Part shown: positions 2,788-36,552 of the stretch, piece by piece
How positions within the stretch are numbered: the stretch's first letter is position 1
How the letters are laid out: every line of letters starts with the position of its first letter
Assembly (NCBI GenBank): GCA_002633275.1
Contig: NWBO01000165.1
Coordinates: 11,015-75,014 of the forward strand
Direction: 5' to 3'
Length of the DNA: 64,000 nt
From: Bacteroidales bacterium Phil12
GTDB taxonomy: Bacteria > Bacteroidota > Bacteroidia > Bacteroidales > P3
Notes under the pieces: generated by a model
Told to the model about the DNA's origin: nothing
The model's input: only the letters and a program-made list of their open reading frames with translations
Databases searched by the model: none
Made by a program: the position numbers and the translations under genes

Positions 2788-2871
2788 GTTGACAATTTAT
2801 GACAACATTTTTGGCAAATAATTTGGAAGTCTCATTTTATTGTATTAATTTTGTTGTCAAATATAGTCAAC
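2788..2871 (+). promoter_or_regulatory. Pair of inverted 19-bp operator-like sites in front of the XRE gene
   Basis: Site 1 is GTTGACAATTTATGACAAC (2788-2806). Site 2 is GTTGTCAAATATAGTCAAC (2853-2871). The reverse complement of site 2 matches site 1 at 16/19 positions. Site 2 ends 2 nt before the ATG at 2874. Confidence 0.45.
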
Positions 2872-2873
2872 AG

Positions 2874-3185
2874 ATGCCAAATATGAAATTTACTGAAAAA
2901 ATAAAGACACTAAGAGAAGCTGGAGGATTGACGCAACGTCAACTTTCTGCCAATCTTAGTATTGATGTTGCTTTGTATAATAGATTCGAAAAAGGTGAAC
3001 GTTTGATGAAACGTGAGCTCGTATGCAAATTAGCAGAGATATATGGTCAAGAACCAGACGAACTTATTAAGTATTGGTTGGCTGATAAAGTCTACTCAAT
3101 ATTAAATGATGAAAATACTGCCGGTCAAGTAATTGAGATGGTAGCAGAGGATATACCTGAATACGTAAAACGCAGTTCTATTTGA
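2874..3185 (+). CDS. XRE-family helix-turn-helix transcriptional regulator
   Basis: MPNMKFTEKIKTLREAGGLTQRQLSANLSIDVALYNRFEKGERLMKRELVCKLAEIYG.. is a classic HTH_3 pattern. The track ORF starts at 2799, but its first 25 codons overlap operator site 1 and look non-native. ATG at 2874 (or 2883) is preferred. Confidence 0.75.
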   Translation: MPNMKFTEKIKTLREAGGLTQRQLSANLSIDVALYNRFEKGERLMKRELVCKLAEIYGQEPDELIKYWLADKVYSILNDENTAGQVIEMVAEDIPEYVKRSSI

Positions 3186-3187
3186 AT

Positions 3188-4051
3188 ATGGAGATAAAAG
3201 AATCTTTGAGATTGCTTGTAGAAAGATTTCAACAAGCAAAAGCAAATGGAGGTTTAGATTTGTCTTCGGAAGCTACAATGCGTGCCTGGATTGACGAACT
3301 CTTGGCACTCTTCGGCTGGGATGTACAAAACACACACCAGGTATTGACCGAGCACACATTAGGGAAGCAGGAACGCAAGAAGCTCCATGAAATTGGCTCA
3401 ACAAACACTTGCCCCGACTACACATTAGTTAACGGTAATGTCGCGTTAGCTTTTGTTGATGCTAAAAGTCTTGATGTTGACATAGAGAATGACAAAAGTG
3501 TTTCTTTTCAAATTCGTTCTTATGGCTGGTCTGTAGGGGCACAATATTCTATCGTGACAAACTTTAACACATTGTCAATATATGATTGTCAGTGGATGCC
3601 ACGTATAGATGATGAAGCAAATAGTGCTCGACTCTATTTCTACAACAGCACTGAATATGTAGAAAATTTCGAAATTCTACGTATGTTCTTACTTCGTGAG
3701 AATATCATTAAAAAGCAATTGGTCTTTTCACATAGTGAGCAAGAGTCTCTTGATTACAACTTTTCTAAATTTCTTGGTGAAATAAGAATAAAATTGGCAG
3801 AGTCCATAATTCGCAACAATGAGTATGACGATTTGAATTTGGTCAGTTCTTTTGTGCAAACTATAATCAATAGAATCCTTTTTATCAGAGTATGCGAATC
3901 CAATAATTTTTATGCTTATGCAAAGAATTATGTAAAGAACTTTGGTATATATCCGATGTCAAAAGAACAAAAGAATACATTATTAGGTTTACAGTCAAAA
4001 GAGGAGATAAATCGATATGTTGCTGATTTGTATCAGTTACGTATTTTTTGA
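3188..4051 (+). CDS. PD-(D/E)xK nuclease-like protein resembling the HsdR_N / type IIG (Eco57I/PglX-type) N-terminal region; no methyltransferase module follows, so it is either standalone or a truncated remnant
   Basis: SEATMRAWIDELLALFGWDV..CPDYTLV..ALAFVDAKS..QIRSYGWS..IVTNFNTLSIYD, then ..IINRILFIRVCE, as seen at the start of the helical linker of type IIG enzymes (recalled from memory). The ATG lies 2 nt after the XRE stop (the track's TTG at 3182 was rejected). Confidence 0.45.
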   Translation: MEIKESLRLLVERFQQAKANGGLDLSSEATMRAWIDELLALFGWDVQNTHQVLTEHTLGKQERKKLHEIGSTNTCPDYTLVNGNVALAFVDAKSLDVDIENDKSVSFQIRSYGWSVGAQYSIVTNFNTLSIYDCQWMPRIDDEANSARLYFYNSTEYVENFEILRMFLLRENIIKKQLVFSHSEQESLDYNFSKFLGEIRIKLAESIIRNNEYDDLNLVSSFVQTIINRILFIRVCESNNFYAYAKNYVKNFGIYPMSKEQKNTLLGLQSKEEINRYVADLYQLRIF

Positions 4052-4085
4052 TTGTAAGCATCCAAATATCAAGTATAATATAAAT

Positions 4086-4901
4086 ATGCAAACACGAGTC
4101 ATACCAGAACATATACTGGAAAATATTTGCGACATTATAGGTGAAACGTCTACTGGACTAACAGGGACAAAAATAAGCAAATATCTTAAGGCATCAAATA
4201 TTGAAGAATATACTCCCCAAGGCGTGATGCTTGCCAAGAGAAAGATTCTGTATCATTCTTTATCAGAAAAACAGAAGAATGATAAATGCTCAAACAATGT
4301 GTTGACATTTATCTCTACAGTTATGTCTCCTGCGAATTTTGTTAACAATATAAGCTTATTTGAAGAATGGAAAATAAACATTAATAAGCAATTAGCTTTT
4401 GTTGGTTACGAGCTTCAAGATGACTCGTCATATAAAGAAATCCAAAAAGCATCTACTATATTAGATGTCAAAATAAAGACAGAAAACTTAAAGAAAGAGT
4501 TAGAATCAAGAAAAGCTCATCCGCAAATTTTCAACTATTGTAAAGAAGAGTTGTTACAAAACAACTACTTCCATTCTGTTCTTGAAGCCAATAAAGGCCT
4601 ATTCAAAAGAATCCGAGAGCTTTCTACATTAGAAAAAGATGGGCAAAACCTAATAGAGCAAGTATTTAGTGATAGCAATCCAATTGTTATTATCAATAAC
4701 TATCAGTCCCAGTCAGAAAAAAACGAACATCGGGGGTTTAGAAGTCTGCTTATAGGGCTATGTGCAATGTTTCGAAATACAACAGCACACGAGCTAAAGG
4801 TTGATTGGCCAATTCAAGAGCAGGACGCACTAGAAATATTGGGTATCATTTCTTATTGTCATGGACGTCTAGATCAAGCTCAAAGAATAAGAAACGTTTA
4901 A
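4086..4901 (+). CDS. TIGR02391 (Hypoth_Ymh)-type protein with an unknown N-terminal domain
   Basis: The C-terminal half HPQIFNYCKEELLQNNYFHSVLEANKGLFKRIRE..DGQNLIEQVFS..NEHRGFRSLLIGLCAMFRNTTAHEL..QDALEILGIISYCHGRLD matches the remembered TIGR02391 signature. ATG at 4086 was chosen because the track start at 4017 overlaps the upstream gene. Confidence 0.65.
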   Translation: MQTRVIPEHILENICDIIGETSTGLTGTKISKYLKASNIEEYTPQGVMLAKRKILYHSLSEKQKNDKCSNNVLTFISTVMSPANFVNNISLFEEWKININKQLAFVGYELQDDSSYKEIQKASTILDVKIKTENLKKELESRKAHPQIFNYCKEELLQNNYFHSVLEANKGLFKRIRELSTLEKDGQNLIEQVFSDSNPIVIINNYQSQSEKNEHRGFRSLLIGLCAMFRNTTAHELKVDWPIQEQDALEILGIISYCHGRLDQAQRIRNV

Positions 4902-4954
4902 GATATAATTCTGGTAAAAATATCACGGAGGTCTGGCACATAAATTTAGAGAAT

Positions 4955-5548
4955 ATGATTTACGTTGTATCGAAAAGGAGAAAACTTGATAGCATAAAGA
5001 CACAATATCCCAATGCTATAATCTGCGATGTAACAAGTACATCGCCAAATTCTCTCGTCAAACTTAGTCCATTTTATCCTCATATGAACATCCCCATACC
5101 ATTCTCACCAGGTTACACAGGCGCATCTGTCGAAGGTATTTGGCAAGGACTTAAAGTATTTGTTGGTGAAGATATTGACATTGATTCCTTCACCAACACA
5201 TCCATGAAAAATATCAAAAGAACTTGTAAGACTCATGGCAAAGTGTTGGGACATAGAAAAGGTATACATGGAATCGAAATATTAGACTACAACTCTGCCA
5301 AGTTGAACATTTACATTCCTTCATATAAGTGGGTGATAGAAAATGTGGTAAAAGATTTAATTAATAAAATGCGTAAAGTCCACAAGACAAAAGATTTAGT
5401 TCTGTTAGATTACAACACATGTCAAAATGTTCTTGATGACTCCAAACCTCTATCTCATGCTTACCTAATAAAAGCATATATATTGGGATTATATCCATAC
5501 AATACTGATAATCAACAATTATCTTTTTTTGACAATGAGACGTTCTAA
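4955..5548 (+). CDS. 197-aa protein of unknown function, translationally coupled to the DarT-like gene. It has a weak NADAR-like motif and is a candidate antitoxin or reversing enzyme.
   Basis: First ATG of the ORF; the track start at 4805 is a TTG overlapping the previous gene. LSPFYP..(18 aa)..ASVEGIWQGLKVF resembles the NADAR/YbiA pattern (LSNF.. then ..SxEHyfQaxKF). The stop overlaps the next gene's ATG by 14 nt. Confidence 0.55.
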   Translation: MIYVVSKRRKLDSIKTQYPNAIICDVTSTSPNSLVKLSPFYPHMNIPIPFSPGYTGASVEGIWQGLKVFVGEDIDIDSFTNTSMKNIKRTCKTHGKVLGHRKGIHGIEILDYNSAKLNIYIPSYKWVIENVVKDLINKMRKVHKTKDLVLLDYNTCQNVLDDSKPLSHAYLIKAYILGLYPYNTDNQQLSFFDNETF

Positions 5549-6428
5549 CTGGTTGAATTTTGATAGAACACTAAAACAGTTTGGAGTAGATCGGTTATAT
5601 CATTTTACAGACCGAGCAAACCTACCTTCGATTATAAAAAATCGAGGTTTACTCTCATGGGCTGATTGTGATGAAAAAGGAATAAAAATAGCAGCACCAG
5701 GTGGTGATTGTTCGTCTCGCATGTATGATAAAAGGGACAATCTACATCATTATGTGCGATTAAGTTTTACAAATAAACATCCTATGATGTTTGTCGCTAT
5801 GCGTGAAGGTAGAATTAAAACCCCGGTAGTTTTAGAAATTGACACAAGTATTATCTTTGATGACACCACTCTCTTTTCTAACATGAATGCTGTTAAAAGA
5901 GAAGCGTCCATAGGTGGTTCCTTATCTGATTTTAGTAAAATTCATTTTGATGCAGTAACGCGCAGGACTCAGTTCGATTTATCTTCTGAAGAACAAAAAT
6001 ATTTTCAAGCAGAGATACTTGTGAAGAATTTTCTGCCTCTTGAATATATATCTAATATAACATCATTCAACATTCCATTGCCATCTGATATAGAGTTAAA
6101 AAATTATTATGGCAAGCACAACTATGTGTATGATAGAGAAGCCGTAGAATTGCTTTCTGACTGCTTATGGAAATTAAGCCATACAACATATTTGCAAGGT
6201 GTTAATCTCTCCGAAATGATATTTGAGATGCTTGATAATGACAACTCTCTACAAATACATATCCGTGGAGTTCTAGATTGCGAAGGTACTTTTCACCTGG
6301 TAGTATCACAAGGTTATACTTGTGGAATGTGTTCTATTGCATTAGAACATTTTATAAATTTGTTGACCCCATTAGGAATGTTTGATGATGGCATGAAACA
6401 TAAATTATCTATTTTAATCAATCAATAA
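5535..6428 (+). CDS. DarT-like (DUF4433) DNA ADP-ribosyltransferase with an uncharacterised C-terminal extension of about 110 aa
   Basis: RLYHFTDRANLPSIIKNRGLLSW (His motif), HHYVRLSFTNKHPMMF (Tyr motif), LFSNMNA, and KYFQAEILVKNFLPLEYISNI (catalytic Glu in a QAE[FIL]LV context) match remembered DarT sequences. Residues from about 185 to 297 resemble nothing I recognise. Confidence 0.7.
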   Translation: MRRSNWLNFDRTLKQFGVDRLYHFTDRANLPSIIKNRGLLSWADCDEKGIKIAAPGGDCSSRMYDKRDNLHHYVRLSFTNKHPMMFVAMREGRIKTPVVLEIDTSIIFDDTTLFSNMNAVKREASIGGSLSDFSKIHFDAVTRRTQFDLSSEEQKYFQAEILVKNFLPLEYISNITSFNIPLPSDIELKNYYGKHNYVYDREAVELLSDCLWKLSHTTYLQGVNLSEMIFEMLDNDNSLQIHIRGVLDCEGTFHLVVSQGYTCGMCSIALEHFINLLTPLGMFDDGMKHKLSILINQ

Positions 6429-6429
6429 T

Positions 6430-7413
6430 ATGGACGTATTAAGTTTATCTAAAATCAGAACGCAAGTCTTGCAGCAGGTTCTTCCTTCGGGTGAAGAACC
6501 TATAGATATTGCATTCTGCATGATTGGAGACAATCTTACAATGTCTCCAATTGAAGTTAATGGAGACTTTTCTCCATCAAAGAAGCGTGATATGCGCTTA
6601 AAAGTTCTGAACTTGTTTCTCAACAAGGAGAATCCTGATTTACGGCAAGCAGCTGAACTTGTGTATTTCTCGTTCGATCCTGTGATGAATGTTGACTACT
6701 GTTTCCAAATTTTTCCAAACAGCAGGAATACAAATCTATTTGTTTTCTCATCTACAGGCAAAAAAATTAGTGCTTTTACACCTTACAATACCACAATAGA
6801 CGAAAGAACAGAAATTGAACGTGCCATTAAAGCTTGTGCCGGAAAAGAAAGTTCATTTGCCTCCTTACGTAGTAAGTTTTCTAAACTTCTTAGTATGTCA
6901 AAGCCTGAACAGCTAAAAGTAATTCCTAGTGCTAACTCTATCTCTATAGATTTAAGCAAAGCAAATCAAAAGTCAGAAAATTCCGAAAACAAAACAAAAA
7001 CTCAAGTTGTGAAAGAATCCAATAATGGTGGAAAAACTCCATTTGAAAGATTTGCTATAGACACAATCATAAGGTTAAACAGTCCTCAATTTGATGAAAT
7101 GCGTGATAAAAAGCAGGGGCCAGTAGCTATCAGAGAGACTCTTTCTGCCTTTACCAAACAAATGATAGAACAGTTCCCTGAGTGGGATGGACTGTTTGAA
7201 TTTCTTCCACAAGATAACCACGTTTGTATTTCGTTATCAAAAGGCTTTGATGATGAAACAACGATGCAGGCAATTCCATGCCTTTGGAGAAGAAAGTCTT
7301 TTGTTGAAAATTGCATTTTGTTTGGCGTACTTAAATTCGTTTTCCTTGACAAGGTTCACAACACTTTTGATGTATTGGACTTAACAAAAATAGATCCATA
7401 TAAGTTGCCTTAA
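6430..7413 (+). CDS. 327-aa protein of unknown function; third member of the DarT-like module
   Basis: The ATG lies 1 nt after the DarT-like stop. A low-complexity Lys/Asn/Ser/Glu linker (KANQKSENSENKTKTQVVKESNNGGK) separates two unrecognised domains. The gene is followed by a terminator. Confidence 0.55.
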   Translation: MDVLSLSKIRTQVLQQVLPSGEEPIDIAFCMIGDNLTMSPIEVNGDFSPSKKRDMRLKVLNLFLNKENPDLRQAAELVYFSFDPVMNVDYCFQIFPNSRNTNLFVFSSTGKKISAFTPYNTTIDERTEIERAIKACAGKESSFASLRSKFSKLLSMSKPEQLKVIPSANSISIDLSKANQKSENSENKTKTQVVKESNNGGKTPFERFAIDTIIRLNSPQFDEMRDKKQGPVAIRETLSAFTKQMIEQFPEWDGLFEFLPQDNHVCISLSKGFDDETTMQAIPCLWRRKSFVENCILFGVLKFVFLDKVHNTFDVLDLTKIDPYKLP

Positions 7414-7434
7414 GGCAATGATTTTTCGAAGTAG

Positions 7435-7459
7435 AGGGATGCCCCAACGGAGCATCCCT
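7435..7459 (+). terminator. Stem-loop terminator at the convergent junction between the cargo operon and the mob module
   Basis: AGGGATGC (7435-7442), 9-nt loop, GCATCCCT (7452-7459), followed by TTTCATTT. It lies between the stop at 7413 (+) and the stop at 7461 (-). Confidence 0.55.
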
Positions 7460-7460
7460 T

Positions 7461-8327
7461 TCATTTCGTCTTGTCCCGAAGTCGTTTCTGTCTGACCTCT
7501 TGAACACGTTTCTTGTAGTAGTCAAGCACATAGTCAAGACCATACTCCTCAATATTCCTATCATTGGCTTGCAGGAACTCATATCCTCCAGAGTCGGCTT
7601 CAAGCGCATAGCGGAAGATCTGCACTCGCTTGTCAAGTTCGTCCGCTCTCTGCTTCTGCTCCCACCATAGGAATGTACCAAAAGCAATAGCAAGCGAGGC
7701 GATATAATAGGCAAATGTTTTCCAAAAACAAGAGATTATATCAAGCCAGATGCGATGGAGAAAATAGCCAAACTTTGACCGCTTTACATTTGATTTAGGC
7801 TTCGCTGTTGGCTCTATTGGGCTATCATCTTTGAAAGGATTGGCTGGTATCTGAGGATTGTCATCAACTGCCAGGATAATATCATCACCAACCTTGACCT
7901 CCTTATAGCCGTTGAGTTTCAGCAAAGCCTTGTGGAATTTGATGAACCAATTATTCCAAGGTTGGGTGACAGTCTCGAACAGATGCTTGTTGCCTTCGAG
8001 AAGACTCTTCGTATCAATGGGCACAGTCTGCTTACCAAGGTCAACCTTTGGTGGATTCTCTTTGAATTTTTCAAGCACAGCATTTGCGAAGGTGTCGACA
8101 TCCATCGTTTGGGTAGTGGCAGGAGTTGATACTGCCTGATCTCCCGACTGTAGTCCCAACTTGGGAATATCGGTGTTGTCGCTCTCCATGAAATAATTAC
8201 CTTCATCACTCAATGAGAACCCCAGCCGCTCAGCAATCGTTTTGAGTGCCTGCCACAGTTTATCCTGGTTTGACTTTACTTCACCAACATTTGTGATGAT
8301 GGTGTCAAGTTTATCTATCTTGGCCAT
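7461..8327 (-). CDS. Mobilization-module accessory protein of unknown function, with one TM segment
   Basis: 288-aa ORF directly downstream of the relaxase (3-nt gap). It has the hydrophobic segment FAYYIASLAIAFGTFLWW. No recognisable catalytic motif. Confidence 0.55.
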   Translation of the reverse strand: MAKIDKLDTIITNVGEVKSNQDKLWQALKTIAERLGFSLSDEGNYFMESDNTDIPKLGLQSGDQAVSTPATTQTMDVDTFANAVLEKFKENPPKVDLGKQTVPIDTKSLLEGNKHLFETVTQPWNNWFIKFHKALLKLNGYKEVKVGDDIILAVDDNPQIPANPFKDDSPIEPTAKPKSNVKRSKFGYFLHRIWLDIISCFWKTFAYYIASLAIAFGTFLWWEQKQRADELDKRVQIFRYALEADSGGYEFLQANDRNIEEYGLDYVLDYYKKRVQEVRQKRLRDKTK

Positions 8328-29199: not shown

Positions 29200-32100
29200 T
29201 TACAATATGACTTTGATTGAAAAGCCACCTTCTGTCGTGGAGTTAGGATAAGAAGAGGATATATATGGAGTATTGATAGTCATATCGAAAAAGGCTTTCA
29301 ATATTATCTTTTCCGTCAGTGAGTACTCGCCAGAAATATTCAACGTCGTAACCTTTGTTCCTGCTGATATTAGATTAACATCTTGGTCTATCTTTCTAAG
29401 AATTGTCTTGTTGCTGGTTATGGATAAATCGGCTTTCAAAAGAATATCGCTCTTAAATTCTCTCGAATTACCACCGCCCGTTCTCACTGTAACCCTTACG
29501 TCCTTGAAACGATAACCGCCACCGGCAACAATACTGTTTCGCTGAACTTCCGTTAATTGGTTGTTGGAGAATGATAGATTTAGGTTTCTCTCTTTTCGTA
29601 TCTCAAAATTCAATTGGAATGAGTTTTTCAAGTTAATATCAATCTTCAAAAGCGGAGATAACTGCTCTGCAATAGCAACTTGGTCTATGGACTGCTTTGG
29701 TACAAAATTGCTGTTTAATGTATTTCTCACCCACTCCGTTCCATAATCGTACGAAGAAACATCGGGTACGGAAGTATTGGTATAGAATGAAGTAATATTG
29801 TAGTTACATGTGTAGTTGGAAGATAATGTTATGGAGTTCGCCCATTTCTTCACCCATTCCAATTTACCAAGACCTGTCCAAGTAATCCGCCAATTAGGCA
29901 TAGGCATCTTTATGAATGGCGAAAGGCTTTGCGAAGAAGCGTCTTTGTTAAGATATGCCGCCAAAAAGGCCGGTAACAACACCTGCTGTGATGATGAGCC
30001 GTAGCCATCTGGCCAATACTGATTGGAAGCCGTATCCCAAACGTCCATTCCCGAATAATCACTGTTGGCAGCCATATTCTTATCCCTTAAACGATTTGCA
30101 ATAATGTGTCGATTGGACATAAATTTCTCGAAAGTTTCACTTACATTGTTCTTGTCGGTTTTGCTAAACAATGTTCCTATTGCCACAACACTTATAGAGA
30201 ATGTTCCGTTTCTGTATGCGGATAATGGTCCTTGTATTTCGTTATCAATATTGCTGAATTTATAATAAGCAGAATACTGCTCGGTCATCGTTCTTTTGAA
30301 ACTCAAATCAATATTAAAGTCCTTGGCAGGTTCAACTTTGATTTGGGCTGTTATGTTTTCCGAATGCTTTTGTACCAATGCGGAATTGAACATAGTATCT
30401 CTTGTCAGCCAACCATTGGCTATTGCATCAGGCATAATATCTTTTTGCGAGCCAAGTATAAATCCTACACCCGGAGCCCACTTGTCTCTATCCGACATTC
30501 CAAAAAATCTTGCGCGAGGCATAAAGCCCGGAATATATGTTCCGTCATTCAAAGAATATGTTATAGAGGCACTCTTGATAGATGTAAGCAACCTTATGGA
30601 GAAATACAACGCTTCTTTGAAATAGTTCTTTTTCTCAATGGTGTCTGTCGAATCTTTTACGGTGTCTTTCTTTAATTTGATGTTGTCTGCACCTTTAAGT
30701 TGTTTAGGTGCAAACTGAGGCAATTTTTTCTTATCCCTTGCATCGTAAGCCGTTTTGATAAACGGCACTTTATTATACAAAGTAGTGAATGTCATTCCGC
30801 CGGTTGCGTTCAAACGTCTTGAATTTTCAATAACATTACCCAACGATTCTGTTGCATTGGTTGAGCCTTGGAATGTATATTGAGCATTGTAACTACCATT
30901 CAAACGAACCCAGTTAAGTATTGGTATTTTGTTTATCGGCACATTGTAATTCAAACGAACATTCTGTGTGAATTGCATCGCCTTACCAAGTTCCATTATA
31001 CTCTGACGAACAGAATCGCGTTTCTCCTTAGTGTCTATTCTTCCGCGAGGCTCTTCTATCAAAGCGTTCATCGTAGCAGAATATTCCATACGTAAAGAAT
31101 TGGTTATATCGTACTTTACGCCGTATTCCCTATTCCAATAAAAATTCTTATAATAATATGGCTCCATTATCACCAATCCTGCACTTTTACTACGCATCAA
31201 TGTTTCTTGATAGTCGCGAAGCATATCACTCTTGAAGATTATGTTCTTTGGTATATAATTCAAAGTAAAATCTCTCAATATCGCCCATTGTTTTCCCTTA
31301 AATAGAGGTATTTTGCTGAATGGTTTAAGACCTTTTGTTTGAGAATCGTATTGATAATTCAACAGCAATCGGCTTTGAATTTGATTATTGTATTCTATAT
31401 CTGTCGTTCGACGGAAAATCTTGGAATAAGAATAAGACAAAGAGAAGTTCTCCACATCATAGAAATGACGTCGTAACGATGAAGTTCCCATACGCTCTTT
31501 TCTAAAATTCATAATAGAGAAATTTGTTATAGAGGTATAGTCTTGAACCATATGACGAATAGAATCTCTTTCCCTTTCCGTACGATAAGACAACAAATCG
31601 TCTTTCAATAATACATCAGGGTCTAACGGATTATATCTCGGATTGCTAACAGTTCTCGAATAATCGAAATGAAAAGGTATTCTCAGGCCAAAATTGCTCG
31701 GGAAGAATTTGCCAAACTCCAAATTAGTTGCAATATCAAACGAACCGACATTGTCTTGCGAAATAGTAGAAATCTTTTGTTCTATTGTACCAAAGCCGGC
31801 ACTTCTATACGAACCGCTCAAAGCCAAATCGCCCAAATCCGCTAAATTAGCACGCATCGAACCTCTTGCAGCCCAACCTGCTTTCTTATTAAAATCAGTA
31901 AGACGTAATTCATTAACCCAAAGTTCAACACTTTTAGGTAACATATCATCGTCATCGGCTGCGCTTTGCTTCTTAGGATTTCTAACGCCAATCATAAAGA
32001 CTTTTACTTCGGCGATGTTAGGATTTCCCAAAACGGTAATCTTTCTATTGCCTTTATATTCTGTATATAATGTATTATTAGAATAATCCATATTTCCCGA

Positions 32101-35100
32101 ACGAACAAAAGCGTTTCGTCTTTCCTTGACTTTTACAAGGGAATCCAATTGAATTTCTATTTCATTATCCGAAGGCCAAATAACATCTCTATCCAATGCA
32201 GAAGCATACCAAGGAGTAAATTTAATCGGCATTTCATATTCGTAATAATTGGAAACAAAGTCAGCCCCCAAACGAATGAATAACGAAACTTCTCCGTCCT
32301 TATATGAATCGTTTTCGTTTATCTTTTCGCCATGTACAAAAAGTTTTAGTTTTTTATACTGACGCATATCATATTCCATTGTCTTATAAACAGCACGAGC
32401 ATCACCATCGCCCAAATTGGCAACTTTCAAACTCATAGCCTGTTCGTTTTGTTGTGTTGCCGAAGTAGTAGAATACATAAGTTCTCTATCTATTCCAGGA
32501 GGTAAAACGTAAGGTACAGGAGAGCGTTTGCCATTCTCTTCAATATTTACCGTACCAACGGTAAAGGTGGTATTTTCATCATGTATGGACGGATTGTATG
32601 CACCATTTGAAAGCAAGTTATCATCGTATTTTCTCCACTCGGCACTAACCAATTCCAATGTAGCAAAACGAAGAATAACCGGCTGCTCAAATCCTCTTAA
32701 AAATGTACGCATAAAACGTATGGATTGATAACCATTTATCGTTCCCACCTTACGACTTGGTTCTCTTACCGGGATTCGGAATTGATACCATTTACAATCT
32801 GTTTTCTGTCCGTTTGATAATGTTATGTTTCTCGCTGTTTGAATATCTGTAATATAATTCTCTCCCACTATCATCTTATCGGGACGCAGTTCTATCTCAT
32901 ATTCATAATAGTTTTCGGCTTCACTCAATGTGTTGTCTTGGTTAATATCTTCCACGTTTGGCAAAGAAGAACTTTGAGTACTCTCGCCAGAATTGGTTAC
33001 AGCAGAATTGCCTTCCGGATTATTATAACGCTTGTAGCGATCAGTAACTTTAACATTCTGTCTATCGTAATCAGTGGAACGAAAATACGAATAATCATCG
33101 TTTGAAGGGTCGTTCAATATTTTCAAGAACTCTTCATCTCTTACTTGTCCCCTAACCTTATTAAGAAATGTCTCAAAGAAAGACTGCTCATCAGAAGAAT
33201 TTAATCCATCGTAACCAATATCTTGGTATTGGCGACTGTTGTCTTCGTTGCTAAACGCATTGACAACCGCTTGTAACTTCGGAACACGTCCCCACATAGT
33301 GGTATCAACATTGACAATCTCCGCCGATGTCGGAAGTCCGTTTTCGTATGATTTTCTGCCGTCCCTAAGAATATCTTCACTAATATCACCTAAATTAAAA
33401 TAAAGTCTGCCCCCCTCACTTTCATCATTATCAATAAAAGGATCCATAAGCCAAAACTCTATATATTCAATATTGGCAGCATCAAAGTCGGTAGCATCTA
33501 TTTTACGCATTATACCTCCCCAACGACTTTGCGGATTATTCAATTTACCTTCTTCGCTCAAACCCGCACTCCACATCGAAAGCGTATCATAATTATAAGG
33601 TCCTCTTTCTTCTGGATAAAAAGCAATATCAAACGTATGCAAATCCGTAGGATTGCCTTCGATAATATCTTTATTCGGATAAATCTCGCTTTGTCTTACC
33701 AAACGGGCATAAGGTTTGGAAATATCGTCTTTGGTTATATTGGACGGAGCGGCTCCATTGTAAAAGTTATCGTCAATAACATACCAGGCAATCTTTGCTC
33801 TATTGAAACCGTATGCAAGTCCCGAATTTTTGAATGTTTCAGGGAACATAGAGTTTGCGGTATTGAAATCCTGTGGCGTAGAAGCCAAACACCAAGAATA
33901 AGGAGATTTCAAATCATAAGAGCGTTTAGATGTTTCAAAGTCGTCAATATATGCTATACCTTGTCTGCCTATAGCCGAAGAATTTCCAGGTAAGAATACT
34001 GCCATTTCGCCTTCAAAAACCAATGTGCTTTGTGCTTTGGTATCATAGAAAGGCAACCAGTTCAAAAGTTTGGTAATAAATGGAATGGAACGTGTTAAAT
34101 GTACATCAAAGCCTGCCAATGTGTTATTGATAGGTTCTTCTCCGTAATTTACTTTTGTTGTCAATGGACTTTCGTGCAAATTCATTATCGTTGCACCTAT
34201 TGACAACTCCGGCGAAACGGTATATGTTCCTCTAACACCCATCATTCTCTTTGTAACCATTGAAAACGTTGTATTGCTTTCGGTTGAGACCGTGATTGGC
34301 GTTCCCGAAGAAAGATAAGCGGAGTTGATTATCCTTACACGTCCCATTGCATAATCCACCGTGTAATCCACACCCTCTTGCAGCTTGATACCTCCCGCCA
34401 TAACGGACACACTGCCCTGCGGCACATTCACTGCTCCCAACGAAATCTCTCCACCCGTTGAAGAAGAGCGGTAACGTCCCTCCAAATAGAATTTATCTTT
34501 CTGTGTGTATTGCATTGCTTGGGATTTGGTCAAGGTATATAAGGAATCAAAGCAATATTTATCCGCCAAATCATCATCATTTAATTTCTCTCGCAAATCC
34601 TTACCGAATGGCTCAACGGTTGGAAAATAAATCAATCCTCGTGAAGCATTAACCGTACCTGCACCAATCTCTGCACCGGTTACAAAATCAAAAACTCCGT
34701 CGGGATACATATTTTGTTGGTTATCCATTCTGTCCAATCCGAATACTTGCAACAACGGAACACCTTTATAATCTCCTTCCGTAAAATATCCGGTTTGAAC
34801 ACCGGTCTCATCACTCAAATACAAAATATTTAATCTAAAATCCTCTTGTGCTATCTGTGAAGAACCTATCCAATAAACATTTTTCATCATAAGTTTCCAC
34901 ATAGGATTTTTGGTATTCAAGGTTGAAGACTTCAATAATTTAACGACCAAAGTATTTGGATCTGCCACACCGTCATCACTAAACTCCCCGACTTGATACA
35001 CCGTCGTGTCGCCCACTATTTGATATTGAAAAGCCACAGCCAAAACCTGATCATTACTCAATCCTTGATTTAACGATATGAAACCAAGTTTTTCATTGAC

Positions 35101-36552
35101 TGTATATTCGCTTGGATTTAATCGTCTTGCACTTTCAACCTTTTCAAAATTCTGCCCCGACACAAAGCCCATACCTTGTAAATATGAACTTACACTGTTT
35201 ATACTTCTTAAAGAATTTTTATCAACAACATTAAACAAATTATTGGATAGATAATTGTCGGGTAATTCGCTACCTTCTATATTCGTTATATATGGAGTTG
35301 TACCGTAGGGTTTATTTTCTCCCAAATCGGCAAAAGCAATTATATTTCTGTTGTTATTGACTGCACTACCAACGTTAGTTCTCCATACTTCAACTTTGGT
35401 GATTATTATATTGGTGTTTAACACCGGAAACGTAGAAAGTGCTTTATTGTAATTATCGTAAAAATACTGCGCCAAAAAGAAATGTTTGTTGTCCTCGTAT
35501 TCATCGGCCTTGAAATTAAATTCTTGACTTTGCGCTCCATTTTGAACAGTAATGGTACTGCTTTCACTCTTCTGTTGAGAAAAAACTGCATCCAACAACA
35601 AATTACCAAACTTGAATTTACCTCTTATTCCAAACAAATTTTGGACACCTGTAATCAATGTCGTAGGCAAAGAAAAAGAGACATTACCTGCTTCCAACAA
35701 CTGAACGATATCGTCTTCCTTGCCTTCGTATTTTAGTTTGAAAATCTCTTTTTCAAAATCGAATGTCGCACCTGTATTATAGTTTAAGTTGAAATTTATC
35801 GCCGTTCCAACCTGTGCTTGCACGTTCAATTGAATATCTTCATCGAAATCAAAAGATGTGGTACTTCTTCGGTTTTCGCTTAAAGCCATATTCTCGTTGC
35901 GATTATTGACAATAGCGAATTTCAAATCCAACGAACCGGACGGCACTATGCTTATTTCCTGACCTCCAAAAATGGTCTCAAACAAATCGCTATTAACCCT
36001 CATTGCAGGTATCAACGAACTCAATGAACCATCGGATTTTGAAGAAGTGGAACTCGTTGCAACTGATGATGATTTGGTTTTCCAATAAGACGAAATCATC
36101 TTGTCCATATCATAATTCTGATACTCCTCAAAGGTCAAAGCTCTTTGTTCCAATACAACGTCTCCGATTTTCTTAACCAAAACATATTCGTTCTTTGCTG
36201 CGTCATATTCGACAGTTTCGGTTATATTGTCAGGGTCTTTCAAATAAAAAGGCGATTCAACAGAATCTTTGACTGGAAAATGTAAGGAATCGGGATTTGT
36301 TAAATTAAAAAAACTCTGCGAAGGATTTACATTAATAAACAAAGGTTTTTCTTTACGAAAATCTATTTTCGCACCCTTATAACCAAAAGAATTTTTATTG
36401 AAATCAAATCCTAAAAGACCGTTGTTTGAATAAGTTTTGCTAAAATAAGTATCGAATGAATTATACAAAGAAAAATCTGCCCTAACCTTTAGAGTTAAAA
36501 CACAAAACAATAAAACTAACAGTGTTATTATCGATATTCTTTTCTTTGTCAT
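29200..36552 (-). CDS. sprA: T9SS translocon / gliding-motility protein SprA (Sov)
   Basis: Uninterrupted 2450-aa ORF with a signal peptide and beta-rich composition. Its size and sequence are typical of Bacteroidota SprA. All overlapping antisense ORFs are short. Confidence 0.9.
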   Translation of the reverse strand: MTKKRISIITLLVLLFCVLTLKVRADFSLYNSFDTYFSKTYSNNGLLGFDFNKNSFGYKGAKIDFRKEKPLFINVNPSQSFFNLTNPDSLHFPVKDSVESPFYLKDPDNITETVEYDAAKNEYVLVKKIGDVVLEQRALTFEEYQNYDMDKMISSYWKTKSSSVATSSTSSKSDGSLSSLIPAMRVNSDLFETIFGGQEISIVPSGSLDLKFAIVNNRNENMALSENRRSTTSFDFDEDIQLNVQAQVGTAINFNLNYNTGATFDFEKEIFKLKYEGKEDDIVQLLEAGNVSFSLPTTLITGVQNLFGIRGKFKFGNLLLDAVFSQQKSESSTITVQNGAQSQEFNFKADEYEDNKHFFLAQYFYDNYNKALSTFPVLNTNIIITKVEVWRTNVGSAVNNNRNIIAFADLGENKPYGTTPYITNIEGSELPDNYLSNNLFNVVDKNSLRSINSVSSYLQGMGFVSGQNFEKVESARRLNPSEYTVNEKLGFISLNQGLSNDQVLAVAFQYQIVGDTTVYQVGEFSDDGVADPNTLVVKLLKSSTLNTKNPMWKLMMKNVYWIGSSQIAQEDFRLNILYLSDETGVQTGYFTEGDYKGVPLLQVFGLDRMDNQQNMYPDGVFDFVTGAEIGAGTVNASRGLIYFPTVEPFGKDLREKLNDDDLADKYCFDSLYTLTKSQAMQYTQKDKFYLEGRYRSSSTGGEISLGAVNVPQGSVSVMAGGIKLQEGVDYTVDYAMGRVRIINSAYLSSGTPITVSTESNTTFSMVTKRMMGVRGTYTVSPELSIGATIMNLHESPLTTKVNYGEEPINNTLAGFDVHLTRSIPFITKLLNWLPFYDTKAQSTLVFEGEMAVFLPGNSSAIGRQGIAYIDDFETSKRSYDLKSPYSWCLASTPQDFNTANSMFPETFKNSGLAYGFNRAKIAWYVIDDNFYNGAAPSNITKDDISKPYARLVRQSEIYPNKDIIEGNPTDLHTFDIAFYPEERGPYNYDTLSMWSAGLSEEGKLNNPQSRWGGIMRKIDATDFDAANIEYIEFWLMDPFIDNDESEGGRLYFNLGDISEDILRDGRKSYENGLPTSAEIVNVDTTMWGRVPKLQAVVNAFSNEDNSRQYQDIGYDGLNSSDEQSFFETFLNKVRGQVRDEEFLKILNDPSNDDYSYFRSTDYDRQNVKVTDRYKRYNNPEGNSAVTNSGESTQSSSLPNVEDINQDNTLSEAENYYEYEIELRPDKMIVGENYITDIQTARNITLSNGQKTDCKWYQFRIPVREPSRKVGTINGYQSIRFMRTFLRGFEQPVILRFATLELVSAEWRKYDDNLLSNGAYNPSIHDENTTFTVGTVNIEENGKRSPVPYVLPPGIDRELMYSTTSATQQNEQAMSLKVANLGDGDARAVYKTMEYDMRQYKKLKLFVHGEKINENDSYKDGEVSLFIRLGADFVSNYYEYEMPIKFTPWYASALDRDVIWPSDNEIEIQLDSLVKVKERRNAFVRSGNMDYSNNTLYTEYKGNRKITVLGNPNIAEVKVFMIGVRNPKKQSAADDDDMLPKSVELWVNELRLTDFNKKAGWAARGSMRANLADLGDLALSGSYRSAGFGTIEQKISTISQDNVGSFDIATNLEFGKFFPSNFGLRIPFHFDYSRTVSNPRYNPLDPDVLLKDDLLSYRTERERDSIRHMVQDYTSITNFSIMNFRKERMGTSSLRRHFYDVENFSLSYSYSKIFRRTTDIEYNNQIQSRLLLNYQYDSQTKGLKPFSKIPLFKGKQWAILRDFTLNYIPKNIIFKSDMLRDYQETLMRSKSAGLVIMEPYYYKNFYWNREYGVKYDITNSLRMEYSATMNALIEEPRGRIDTKEKRDSVRQSIMELGKAMQFTQNVRLNYNVPINKIPILNWVRLNGSYNAQYTFQGSTNATESLGNVIENSRRLNATGGMTFTTLYNKVPFIKTAYDARDKKKLPQFAPKQLKGADNIKLKKDTVKDSTDTIEKKNYFKEALYFSIRLLTSIKSASITYSLNDGTYIPGFMPRARFFGMSDRDKWAPGVGFILGSQKDIMPDAIANGWLTRDTMFNSALVQKHSENITAQIKVEPAKDFNIDLSFKRTMTEQYSAYYKFSNIDNEIQGPLSAYRNGTFSISVVAIGTLFSKTDKNNVSETFEKFMSNRHIIANRLRDKNMAANSDYSGMDVWDTASNQYWPDGYGSSSQQVLLPAFLAAYLNKDASSQSLSPFIKMPMPNWRITWTGLGKLEWVKKWANSITLSSNYTCNYNITSFYTNTSVPDVSSYDYGTEWVRNTLNSNFVPKQSIDQVAIAEQLSPLLKIDINLKNSFQLNFEIRKERNLNLSFSNNQLTEVQRNSIVAGGGYRFKDVRVTVRTGGGNSREFKSDILLKADLSITSNKTILRKIDQDVNLISAGTKVTTLNISGEYSLTEKIILKAFFDMTINTPYISSSYPNSTTEGGFSIKVIL

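Follow-up and report, generated by a model that had tools for sequence, protein, structure and literature searches.

Two classes of DarTG system have been characterised, one in which the eraser is a macrodomain and one in which it is a NADAR protein. DarTG1, represented by Escherichia coli C7 and Geobacter lovleyi (structures 8BAQ and 8BAT), pairs DarT1 with NADAR/DarG1 (PMC11543638), and DarTG2, represented by Thermus and Mycobacterium tuberculosis, pairs DarT2 with a macrodomain DarG. AdfN is an orphan phage NADAR that neutralises DarT1 and counters DarTG1 (PMC11257639). Here, we analysed a locus in a 64,000-nucleotide stretch of DNA (the window) from Bacteroidales bacterium Phil12 (GenBank assembly GCA_002633275.1, contig NWBO01000165.1, positions 11,015 to 75,014 of the forward strand), where an initial annotation made from the sequence had seen three tightly coupled genes around a DarT-like ADP-ribosyltransferase with no macrodomain partner. 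Our analyses suggest that positions 4914..7466 of the window are probably a mobile three-gene cassette around a diverged DarTG1-type pair for reversible DNA ADP-ribosylation, in which gene 2 would supply the transferase and gene 1, a member of family DUF6939, the eraser, while the C-terminal domain (CTD) of gene 2 and two domains of gene 3 (g3N and g3C) would form an accessory trio. The locus points to a third DarTG class; in a literature search, no paper was seen to mention DUF6939 or a DarT-vWA architecture, or to name DarTG3 as a system.

The DarT domain and its DUF6939 partner

The initial annotation had placed gene 2 in the DarT/DUF4433 family on its hallmark sequence blocks, and this assignment held. 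Pfam PF14487 (DarT/DUF4433) matches residues 22-181 with an E value of 5.6e-34 and 118.1 bits (cut-off 22.5), the PADLOC DarT model matches with an E value of 3.2e-19, and the three blocks, LYHFTDRANLPSIIKNRGLLSW, YVRLSFTNKHPMMF and QAEILVKNF, all lie at invariant columns of the family alignment. When solved structures were searched, both the gene 2 sequence (E 0.0065) and the family profile (E 1.9e-8) matched only E. coli C7 DarT1 (8baq), and neither matched a DarT2 structure. The comparison extends to the DarT1 active-site residues, whose roles have been described (PMC11543638): H23-F24-T25 of gene 2 aligns with DarT1 H17-F18-T19, S77 with S63, where DarT2 has the ARTD tyrosine, and E160, within QAEILV, with the catalytic E152 that is an alanine in the crystallised mutant. 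All of these are invariant in the family, as are R62 and D65, which fall in a stretch aligned to DarT1 R52/D54 whose exact register is uncertain. Judged from these alignments, gene 2 carries a true DarT domain with a DarT1-like active site.

Gene 1, in which only a weak NADAR-like motif had been noted at first, is a recognisable protein: Pfam DUF6939 (PF22075) matches it over profile positions 1-167 of 167, with an E value of 3.3e-70 and 235.5 bits (cut-off 27). The suspected remote homology to NADAR is nevertheless real at the level of profiles. Our reference set of DarT1-associated NADAR proteins (A5) was drawn from six plasmids, from the genes that lie downstream of DarT1, and was validated by the match of its profile to the G. 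lovleyi NADAR 8bat (E 9e-98). Alignment of DUF6939 to this set with hhalign gave a probability of 91.5% and an E value of 8.5e-7, and with 126 diverse DUF6939 sequences a probability of 91.7%, in a local alignment of residues 2-186 with NADAR residues 30-221, whereas unrelated domain pairs, run likewise as controls, scored below 2%. Individually, 25 of 38 DUF6939 members match the NADAR-DarT1 family PF22397, the best with an E value of 2.7e-5. Common to both families is the motif VE..[FW]Q..KVFE of the active-site helix; in E. coli C7 NADAR the catalytic residues E88 and K95 have the same E-x6-K spacing as E60 and K67 of gene 1, whose K88 aligns with K115 of the E. coli protein. Mutagenesis has shown E88 and K95 to be needed for hydrolysis of ADP-ribosylated guanine, and K115 is needed for rescue. 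In DUF6939, E60, K67, K88, D152 and H168 are invariant across the 126 sequences, viral orphans included, and E60, K67, K88 and D152 are candidate catalytic residues of gene 1, which is very probably a NADAR-derived hydrolase lying outside PF22397. The eraser would then have diverged from NADAR so far as to be filed under a domain of unknown function.

The AlphaFold2 model of gene 1 has a predicted local distance difference test (pLDDT) score of 93. Searched with Foldseek against BFVD, the DUF6939 model has significant matches only among uncharacterised giant-virus proteins (TM-score 0.5-0.7), from Megaviridae, Marseillevirus, Pithovirus and Bodo saltans virus. A macrodomain or canonical DarG as the partner was considered and rejected, in agreement with the initial annotation: neither gene 1 nor gene 3 has such a match in Pfam, PADLOC or NCBIfam, the Macro domain is not matched in either at E <= 1, and the PADLOC DarG models give no match.

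The pairing of DUF6939 with DarT is very common and concentrated in gut Bacteroidota, e.g. Segatella copri, Parabacteroides and Bacteroides. We found 4,156 homologous clusters of DUF6939 and 415 species genomes carrying it, nearly all Bacteroidales with some Cytophagales. In 74 of 80 loci fetched from these genomes a DarT open reading frame (ORF) lies directly beside DUF6939, and the exceptions are for the most part loci close to the end of a contig or with a DUF6939 ORF that is cut short. The commonest form (71/75 loci), represented among L003-L006 and L012-L089 (e.g. L081, 5001..7908), consists of DUF6939, a DarT of about 481 residues with a vWA-like C terminus and a PP2C-like gene; a Ser/Thr-kinase-like gene is present in the locus in 47 of 54 cases. 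Neither vWA (E 0.053) nor PP2C (E 0.014) reaches the Pfam threshold, and the vWA-like domain has a metal ion-dependent adhesion site (MIDAS)-like 'IDQSVSM'. Such a neighbourhood of vWA, PP2C and kinase suggests that DarT is phospho-regulated. The 297-residue DarT form of the window is rare at the species level (2/75 genome loci); human-gut metagenomes contain it at 17 further loci, of which 14 are 88-92% identical. Since only the DarT half is detected by the PADLOC models, tools of this kind would probably miss the system. DarT precedes DUF6939, in reversed order, in two loci, L063 (4046..5726) and L077 (from the Cytophagales genus Fibrella), and on the viral contig L090; there, DarT has a 140-residue N-terminal extension of unknown type and DUF6939 is longer (245-256 residues).

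DUF6939 also occurs in viruses. Nine of the ten DUF6939 genes on IMG/VR viral contigs are without DarT (L091-L099, contigs of 14-201 kb), and the neighbourhoods of two of these match phage families; PHROGs and GenBank phages gave no DUF6939 match. This orphan occurrence, like that of AdfN, argues for a trans-acting enzyme, and the orphan genes of large viruses are candidate anti-DarT factors or part of a wider viral family processing ADP-ribose.

The accessory domains and the third gene

The remaining parts of the cassette are as unfamiliar as they had first appeared. The DarT extension of about 110 residues, initially called unrecognisable, corresponds to the CTD, which has no Pfam match, and gene 3, described as novel, has none in Pfam, NCBIfam, PADLOC or PDB sequences. 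When 1.84 billion representatives were searched exhaustively with HMMER, only 41 relatives of gene 3 came up. Its AlphaFold2 model (pLDDT 78) consists of the domains g3N (pLDDT about 80-90) and g3C (about 90), plus a disordered linker that corresponds to a variable, gapped region of the family alignment and falls below 50 over residues 138-162 and 178-200; Foldseek gave no usable match of the model in the PDB (best E 0.024, TM-score 0.22).

Homologues of the three domains recur elsewhere in other arrangements. The CTD is conserved in all 297-residue DarTs, and in L081 (E 1.4e-12) and L136 (E 4e-20) a CTD-like domain forms the C terminus of a Ser/Thr-kinase-like protein, while in L115 (E 7e-6) one forms the N terminus of a CTD-g3C protein encoded beside a macro-paired DarT. 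The g3C domain makes up a protein by itself in L081 (E 4e-46) and is fused to the said CTD-like domain in L115 (E 1.4e-17). The g3N domain is fused to the N terminus of DarT domains in P0300 and P0303, where the operon reads CTD-like + g3C (201 residues), g3N-DarT (337 residues) and Macro. In L081 the order is a Ser/Thr-kinase-like protein with a CTD-like domain, g3N alone (132 residues) and g3C alone, and this trio stands directly upstream of a kinase and a set of DUF6939, DarT-vWA and PP2C. The theme of kinase-CTD, g3N and g3C is repeated in L136 and L186-L190, with g3N and g3C joined in some operons. Furthermore, the DarT C terminus and the third gene co-vary strictly: the 297-residue DarT is accompanied by gene 3, and the 481-residue vWA-like DarT by the PP2C-like gene. 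Since the domains are found fused and permuted, in the manner of Rosetta-stone proteins, and since this co-variation is strict, CTD, g3N and g3C seem to share one function and probably form a single complex on an enzymatic head. We take them to be a co-inherited, portable and previously undescribed accessory trio.

Further arrangements were seen for single members. The g3N domain is found at the N terminus of methyltransferases (P0308, P0310), where, as in L117 (5001..6281), a 426-residue protein joins g3N to a class I methyltransferase-like domain and is preceded by an unannotated gene of 248 residues; neither CTD nor g3C was detected there. The g3C domain is 49% identical to the C terminus of a 274-residue family from HSP70/kinase-AAA operons. 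In gut metagenomes (L007-L009, L139-L191), where it is common, such an operon encodes an HSP70-like protein, an 88-residue protein, a kinase + AAA protein (594 residues), a TerB-like protein (156-158 residues), the 274-residue protein with its terminal g3C and a 178-residue protein, and looks like an undescribed conflict or stress system having one domain in common with gene 3. Two metagenome contigs of 5.5-6 kb (L186, L189) carry, in order, g3C, DUF6939, DarT-vWA, a PP2C-like gene, kinase-CTD and g3N; this resembles a circular permutation of L081, and could arise from modules in tandem or from an assembly that wrapped around a small element, either circular or repeated.

Three other ideas about these domains were tried and rejected. 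CTD, g3N and g3C are not paralogous 'pairing' domains, nor kin of DUF6939/NADAR, all hhalign comparisons scoring below 2%; the invariant C210, H216, C266 and H272 of the CTD do not mark a general zinc site, as the CTD-like domains of L081 and L115 do not retain them; and by BLASTP gene 3 is unrelated to the 261-residue third gene of the 481-residue DarT type.

Cassette limits, surroundings and proposed role

The three forward-strand ORFs run from ATG 4955 to TAA 5548 (197 residues), from ATG 5535 to TAA 6428 (297 residues) and from ATG 6430 to TAA 7413 (327 residues), so that, as initially reported, genes 1 and 2 overlap by 14 nt and a single nucleotide separates the stop of gene 2 from the ATG of gene 3. 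The start codons agree with those of homologues, every DUF6939 beginning 'MI.I.SKR' and every DarT 'MKRxNW'. Both junctions are the same in the cassettes of L108 (6526-7119, 7106-7999 and 8001-8963) and L112 (1449-2042, 2029-2922 and 2924-3889), and are kept across L108-L113, in which protein identity to the window is just 44-65%; at such divergence the coupling of the three genes is a conserved feature and not chance. In nine loci, nucleotide homology to relatives about 91% identical spans 4914-7466 and ends at both edges, outside which the flanks differ. The cassette is a discrete unit of 2.55 kb, and its features are collected in Table 1.

Table 1. Features of the three-gene cassette (positions in the window)
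Feature	Position	Strand	Description
Cassette upstream edge	4914..4954	+	Homology to ~91% identical relatives begins at 4914; 41 nt 5' of gene 1
Putative -7 element	4942-4949	+	TAAATTTA, near-match to the Bacteroidota -7 motif TAnnTTTG
Gene 1	4955..5548	+	197 residues, DUF6939, remote homologue of DarT1-associated NADAR; predicted eraser/antitoxin
Gene 2, DarT domain	5535..6089	+	Residues 1-185; DarT1-like; predicted toxin/effector
Gene 2, CTD	6090..6428	+	Residues 186-297 + stop codon (112 residues); putative accessory trio member 1
Gene 3, g3N	6430..6840	+	Residues 1-137; putative accessory trio member 2
Gene 3, linker	6841..7029	+	Residues 138-200; low-complexity, predicted disordered
Gene 3, g3C	7030..7413	+	Residues 201-327 + stop codon; motif KGFxDxxTxxAIPxLWxRKSFxENC; putative accessory trio member 3
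Two hairpins	7404-7419 and 7427-7468 (core stem 7435-7442 / 7452-7459)	.	Between convergent genes; feature span 7404..7466

The cassette may have its own promoter in its upstream edge, where the near-match TAAATTTA lies. An exact TAnnTTTG is absent from the forward strand of 4176-5851, and hence from the region upstream of gene 1, and a sigma-70 promoter scan gave matches no better than those of shuffled sequence and identified no convincing promoter. The window as a whole has 113 matches to TAnnTTTG where shuffles have 77 +/- 9, an over-representation that fits a Bacteroidota origin. At the other end, the first of the two hairpins coincides with a terminator-like match, and the RNA fold of 7396-7472 has an energy of -30.3 kcal/mol (z = -6.0); the hairpins are a probable bidirectional terminator marking the downstream edge of the cassette.

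On one side the cassette adjoins a relaxase, MobC/NikA and two integrases, and on the other a helix-turn-helix (HTH), restriction endonuclease (REase)-N-like and HEPN group. It lies in the cargo region of a mobilizable element, as had been proposed at first, and in L001, L108 and L112 it stands in differing, unrelated contexts. The genes directly 5' of the cassette (2799..4901, forward strand) comprise an XRE-type HTH gene (2799..3185), a gene (3182..4051) for a 289-residue protein whose match to type IIG restriction enzymes is limited to their N-terminal nuclease part, and one for a HEPN/Hypoth_Ymh protein that matches PADLOC PD-Lambda-3_B with an E value of 3e-65 (4017..4901), and may be a second, partial defence module; the relatives at about 91% identity have in common with this region only a 150-nt piece, 3905..4056. 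In another element (L108-L111) the cassette directly follows a gene pair (4385..6346) for a Y-family polymerase (IMS) and an S24 peptidase of UmuD-like type; a transposase, a large primase and a gene of the YpsA family are close by. Elsewhere in the window there is an ORF of 2450 residues on the reverse strand (29200..36552).

Taken together, we infer a mechanism that extends to enzymatic activities, base specificity, toxicity and its rescue, and the physical interaction and regulatory role of the trio, the core of which we hold with moderate confidence. The N-terminal domain of gene 2 would be an active DarT1-like transferase that ADP-ribosylates bases of single-stranded DNA, most likely guanine, and this modification would block replication of the phage or of the cell. 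Gene 1, as a diverged NADAR-type N-glycosidase, would remove ADP-ribose from DNA and spare uninfected cells, acting as an enzymatic (type IV) antitoxin that is encoded first and translationally coupled to the toxin. CTD, g3N and g3C would assemble on the toxin as one complex and regulate DarT, e.g. by infection sensing and gating. On a mobilizable element, the biological role would most likely be anti-phage defence and/or element addiction. It is possible, though we put this forward only tentatively, that the trio is a portable three-domain sensor/regulator that gates DarT1-like, DarT2-like and Ser/Thr kinase heads (and possibly, for g3N alone, a methyltransferase) on infection, that the cassette is a sensor-writer-eraser immune system rather than a toxin-antitoxin pair, and that DUF6939 forms a new clade of DNA de-ADP-ribosylases, derived from NADAR, that may have a base specificity of its own and that jumbo phages and giant viruses captured as counter-defence.

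Several results weigh against reading the cassette as a diverged DarTG1-type pair under the control of an accessory trio. Gene 2 misses the cut-off of the NCBIfam equivalog toxin_DarT (NF048013; 49.6 against 150 bits); it is a divergent member of the DarT family and no equivalog of a characterised DarT. Gene 1 is below the cut-off of NADAR-DarT1 PF22397 (14.6 against 27 bits, E 0.022), neither gene 1 itself nor the DUF6939 profile has a match among PDB sequences, and the counterpart of the catalytic Asp171 of NADAR is ambiguous: the aligned column is N158 in gene 1 and Asp in 95 of 126 sequences, and the invariant D152, six residues upstream, is an alternative. A Foldseek search of the DUF6939 model against the PDB, 8BAT included, returned no NADAR with its YbiA-like alpha+beta fold and no other structure (best E 1.4), so that the NADAR link comes from profile comparison and not from structure; NADAR-annotated viral models were likewise non-significant against it (E 2.4-6.6, TM-score 0.40-0.44). 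The eraser gene stands first, the reverse of the order in the DarTG1 loci examined. As for the trio, its candidate roles are sensing, gating and targeting, and the preference for regulation or sensing, which we hold because the head can be a kinase, is conjectural; gene 3 might just as well act as an effector, as a targeting factor or as another antitoxin beside gene 1.

The likeliest alternative, though we find it doubtful, is that the cassette serves chiefly as a plasmid-style module for addiction or the control of replication, in which ADP-ribosylating single-stranded DNA in a reversible way stabilises or regulates the element instead of acting against phage. Relaxase, MobC, integrase and primase genes do surround a discrete cassette that moves between elements, and M. 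tuberculosis DarTG is described as controlling replication and growth rather than defence (PMC12170906). On the other hand, the neighbours include genes of defence type, namely the HEPN/Ymh and REase-like genes in the window and RloB/AAA in L110, and the finding of orphan DUF6939 genes on large viral contigs hints at a counter-measure by phages and thereby at a role in defence; addiction and defence are, moreover, not mutually exclusive.

We consider it unlikely that gene 3 is the main antitoxin, binding the DarT CTD in a type II-like manner within a tripartite set of toxin, antitoxin and eraser, with DUF6939 only cleaning up leaky modification or serving another role. The strict co-variation of CTD and third gene, the direct fusion of g3N to DarT in other proteins and the 1-nt gap, which couples gene 3 tightly to the toxin gene, would all favour this, and canonical DarG2 likewise joins an eraser to a toxin-binding domain (PMC11543638). 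However, the trio is also found on Ser/Thr kinases, which are not obviously toxins, the macro-paired operons retain a full Macro eraser, and the Cytophagales DarT-DUF6939 pairs (L063, L077) match no CTD, g3N or g3C profile, so that there the trio is not needed for neutralisation. More improbable still is that DUF6939 is no NADAR-type hydrolase, its motif being convergent or relict, and that it neutralises DarT otherwise (e.g. by binding, or by consuming NAD+ or ADP-ribose) or acts on another substrate such as RNA or a small ADP-ribose derivative: the lack of a NADAR structure among Foldseek matches despite a high-confidence model, the NADAR matches below the Pfam threshold and the uncharacterised giant-virus proteins as best structural relatives would suit this, but the hhalign score against its controls, the exact matches in the VE..[FW]Q..KVFE helix, the invariance of residues that are catalytic in NADAR and a partner transferase that is exclusively DarT1-like, and not DarT2-like, in the sampled loci argue against it.

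Comparison with described systems

The initial annotation had asked whether the locus is a new DarT-family architecture. The core appears to be a diverged DarTG1-type pair in inverted order, with a reversing enzyme present, and in that respect is not new; the CTD, g3N and g3C trio is. What is new is a DUF6939 clade that is large, gut-associated and unstudied, an accessory module common to macro-paired DarTs and kinases, and orphan viral copies. The accessory modules, whether CTD/g3N/g3C or vWA/PP2C/kinase, offer a handle on how infection switches on DarT systems.

One relative is the sibling system of DUF6939, vWA-like DarT and PP2C-like gene, whose DUF6939-DarT core is 55-60% identical to that of the window and which likewise pairs a variable DarT C-terminal domain with a variable third gene; in the window, the CTD and gene 3 stand in place of the vWA-like domain and the PP2C-like gene. 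A 'TerY-P triad' of vWA, PP2C and kinase was reportedly described by Anantharaman, Iyer and Aravind in 2012, and the dominant Bacteroidales sibling system resembles this triad. With AdfN, DUF6939 has in common the occurrence without DarT on most of the viral contigs, as expected of an eraser that acts in trans and has been recruited to counter-defence; unlike AdfN, some of the viral contigs and structural matches of DUF6939 belong to giant viruses of eukaryotes and not to phages. The likeness to DarTG2 lies in the combination of a DarT-fold toxin with an enzymatic eraser, and the macro-paired DarT of L114-L116 even has the g3N, CTD and g3C domains of the window, whereas the window has no macrodomain, its Ser77 replaces the tyrosine of the H-Y-E triad and the family profile matched no DarT2 structure.

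Among the described systems, DarTG1 is the closest. The H-F-T residues, the serine in place of the ARTD tyrosine and the catalytic glutamate are common to both transferases, the partner in the window is a homologue of NADAR-DarT1 that keeps both the catalytic E-x6-K and the additional lysine, and in both cases a tightly coupled two-gene core lies on mobile DNA and the eraser has orphan copies in viruses. Compared with DarTG1, on the other hand, the eraser of the window is about 50 residues shorter, lacks the N-terminal beta-beta-alpha extension, and belongs to the separate Pfam family DUF6939, below the PF22397 threshold and with no Foldseek match to 8BAT, whereas the DarT has an extra C-terminal domain, a third gene is obligatory and the hosts are essentially Bacteroidota.

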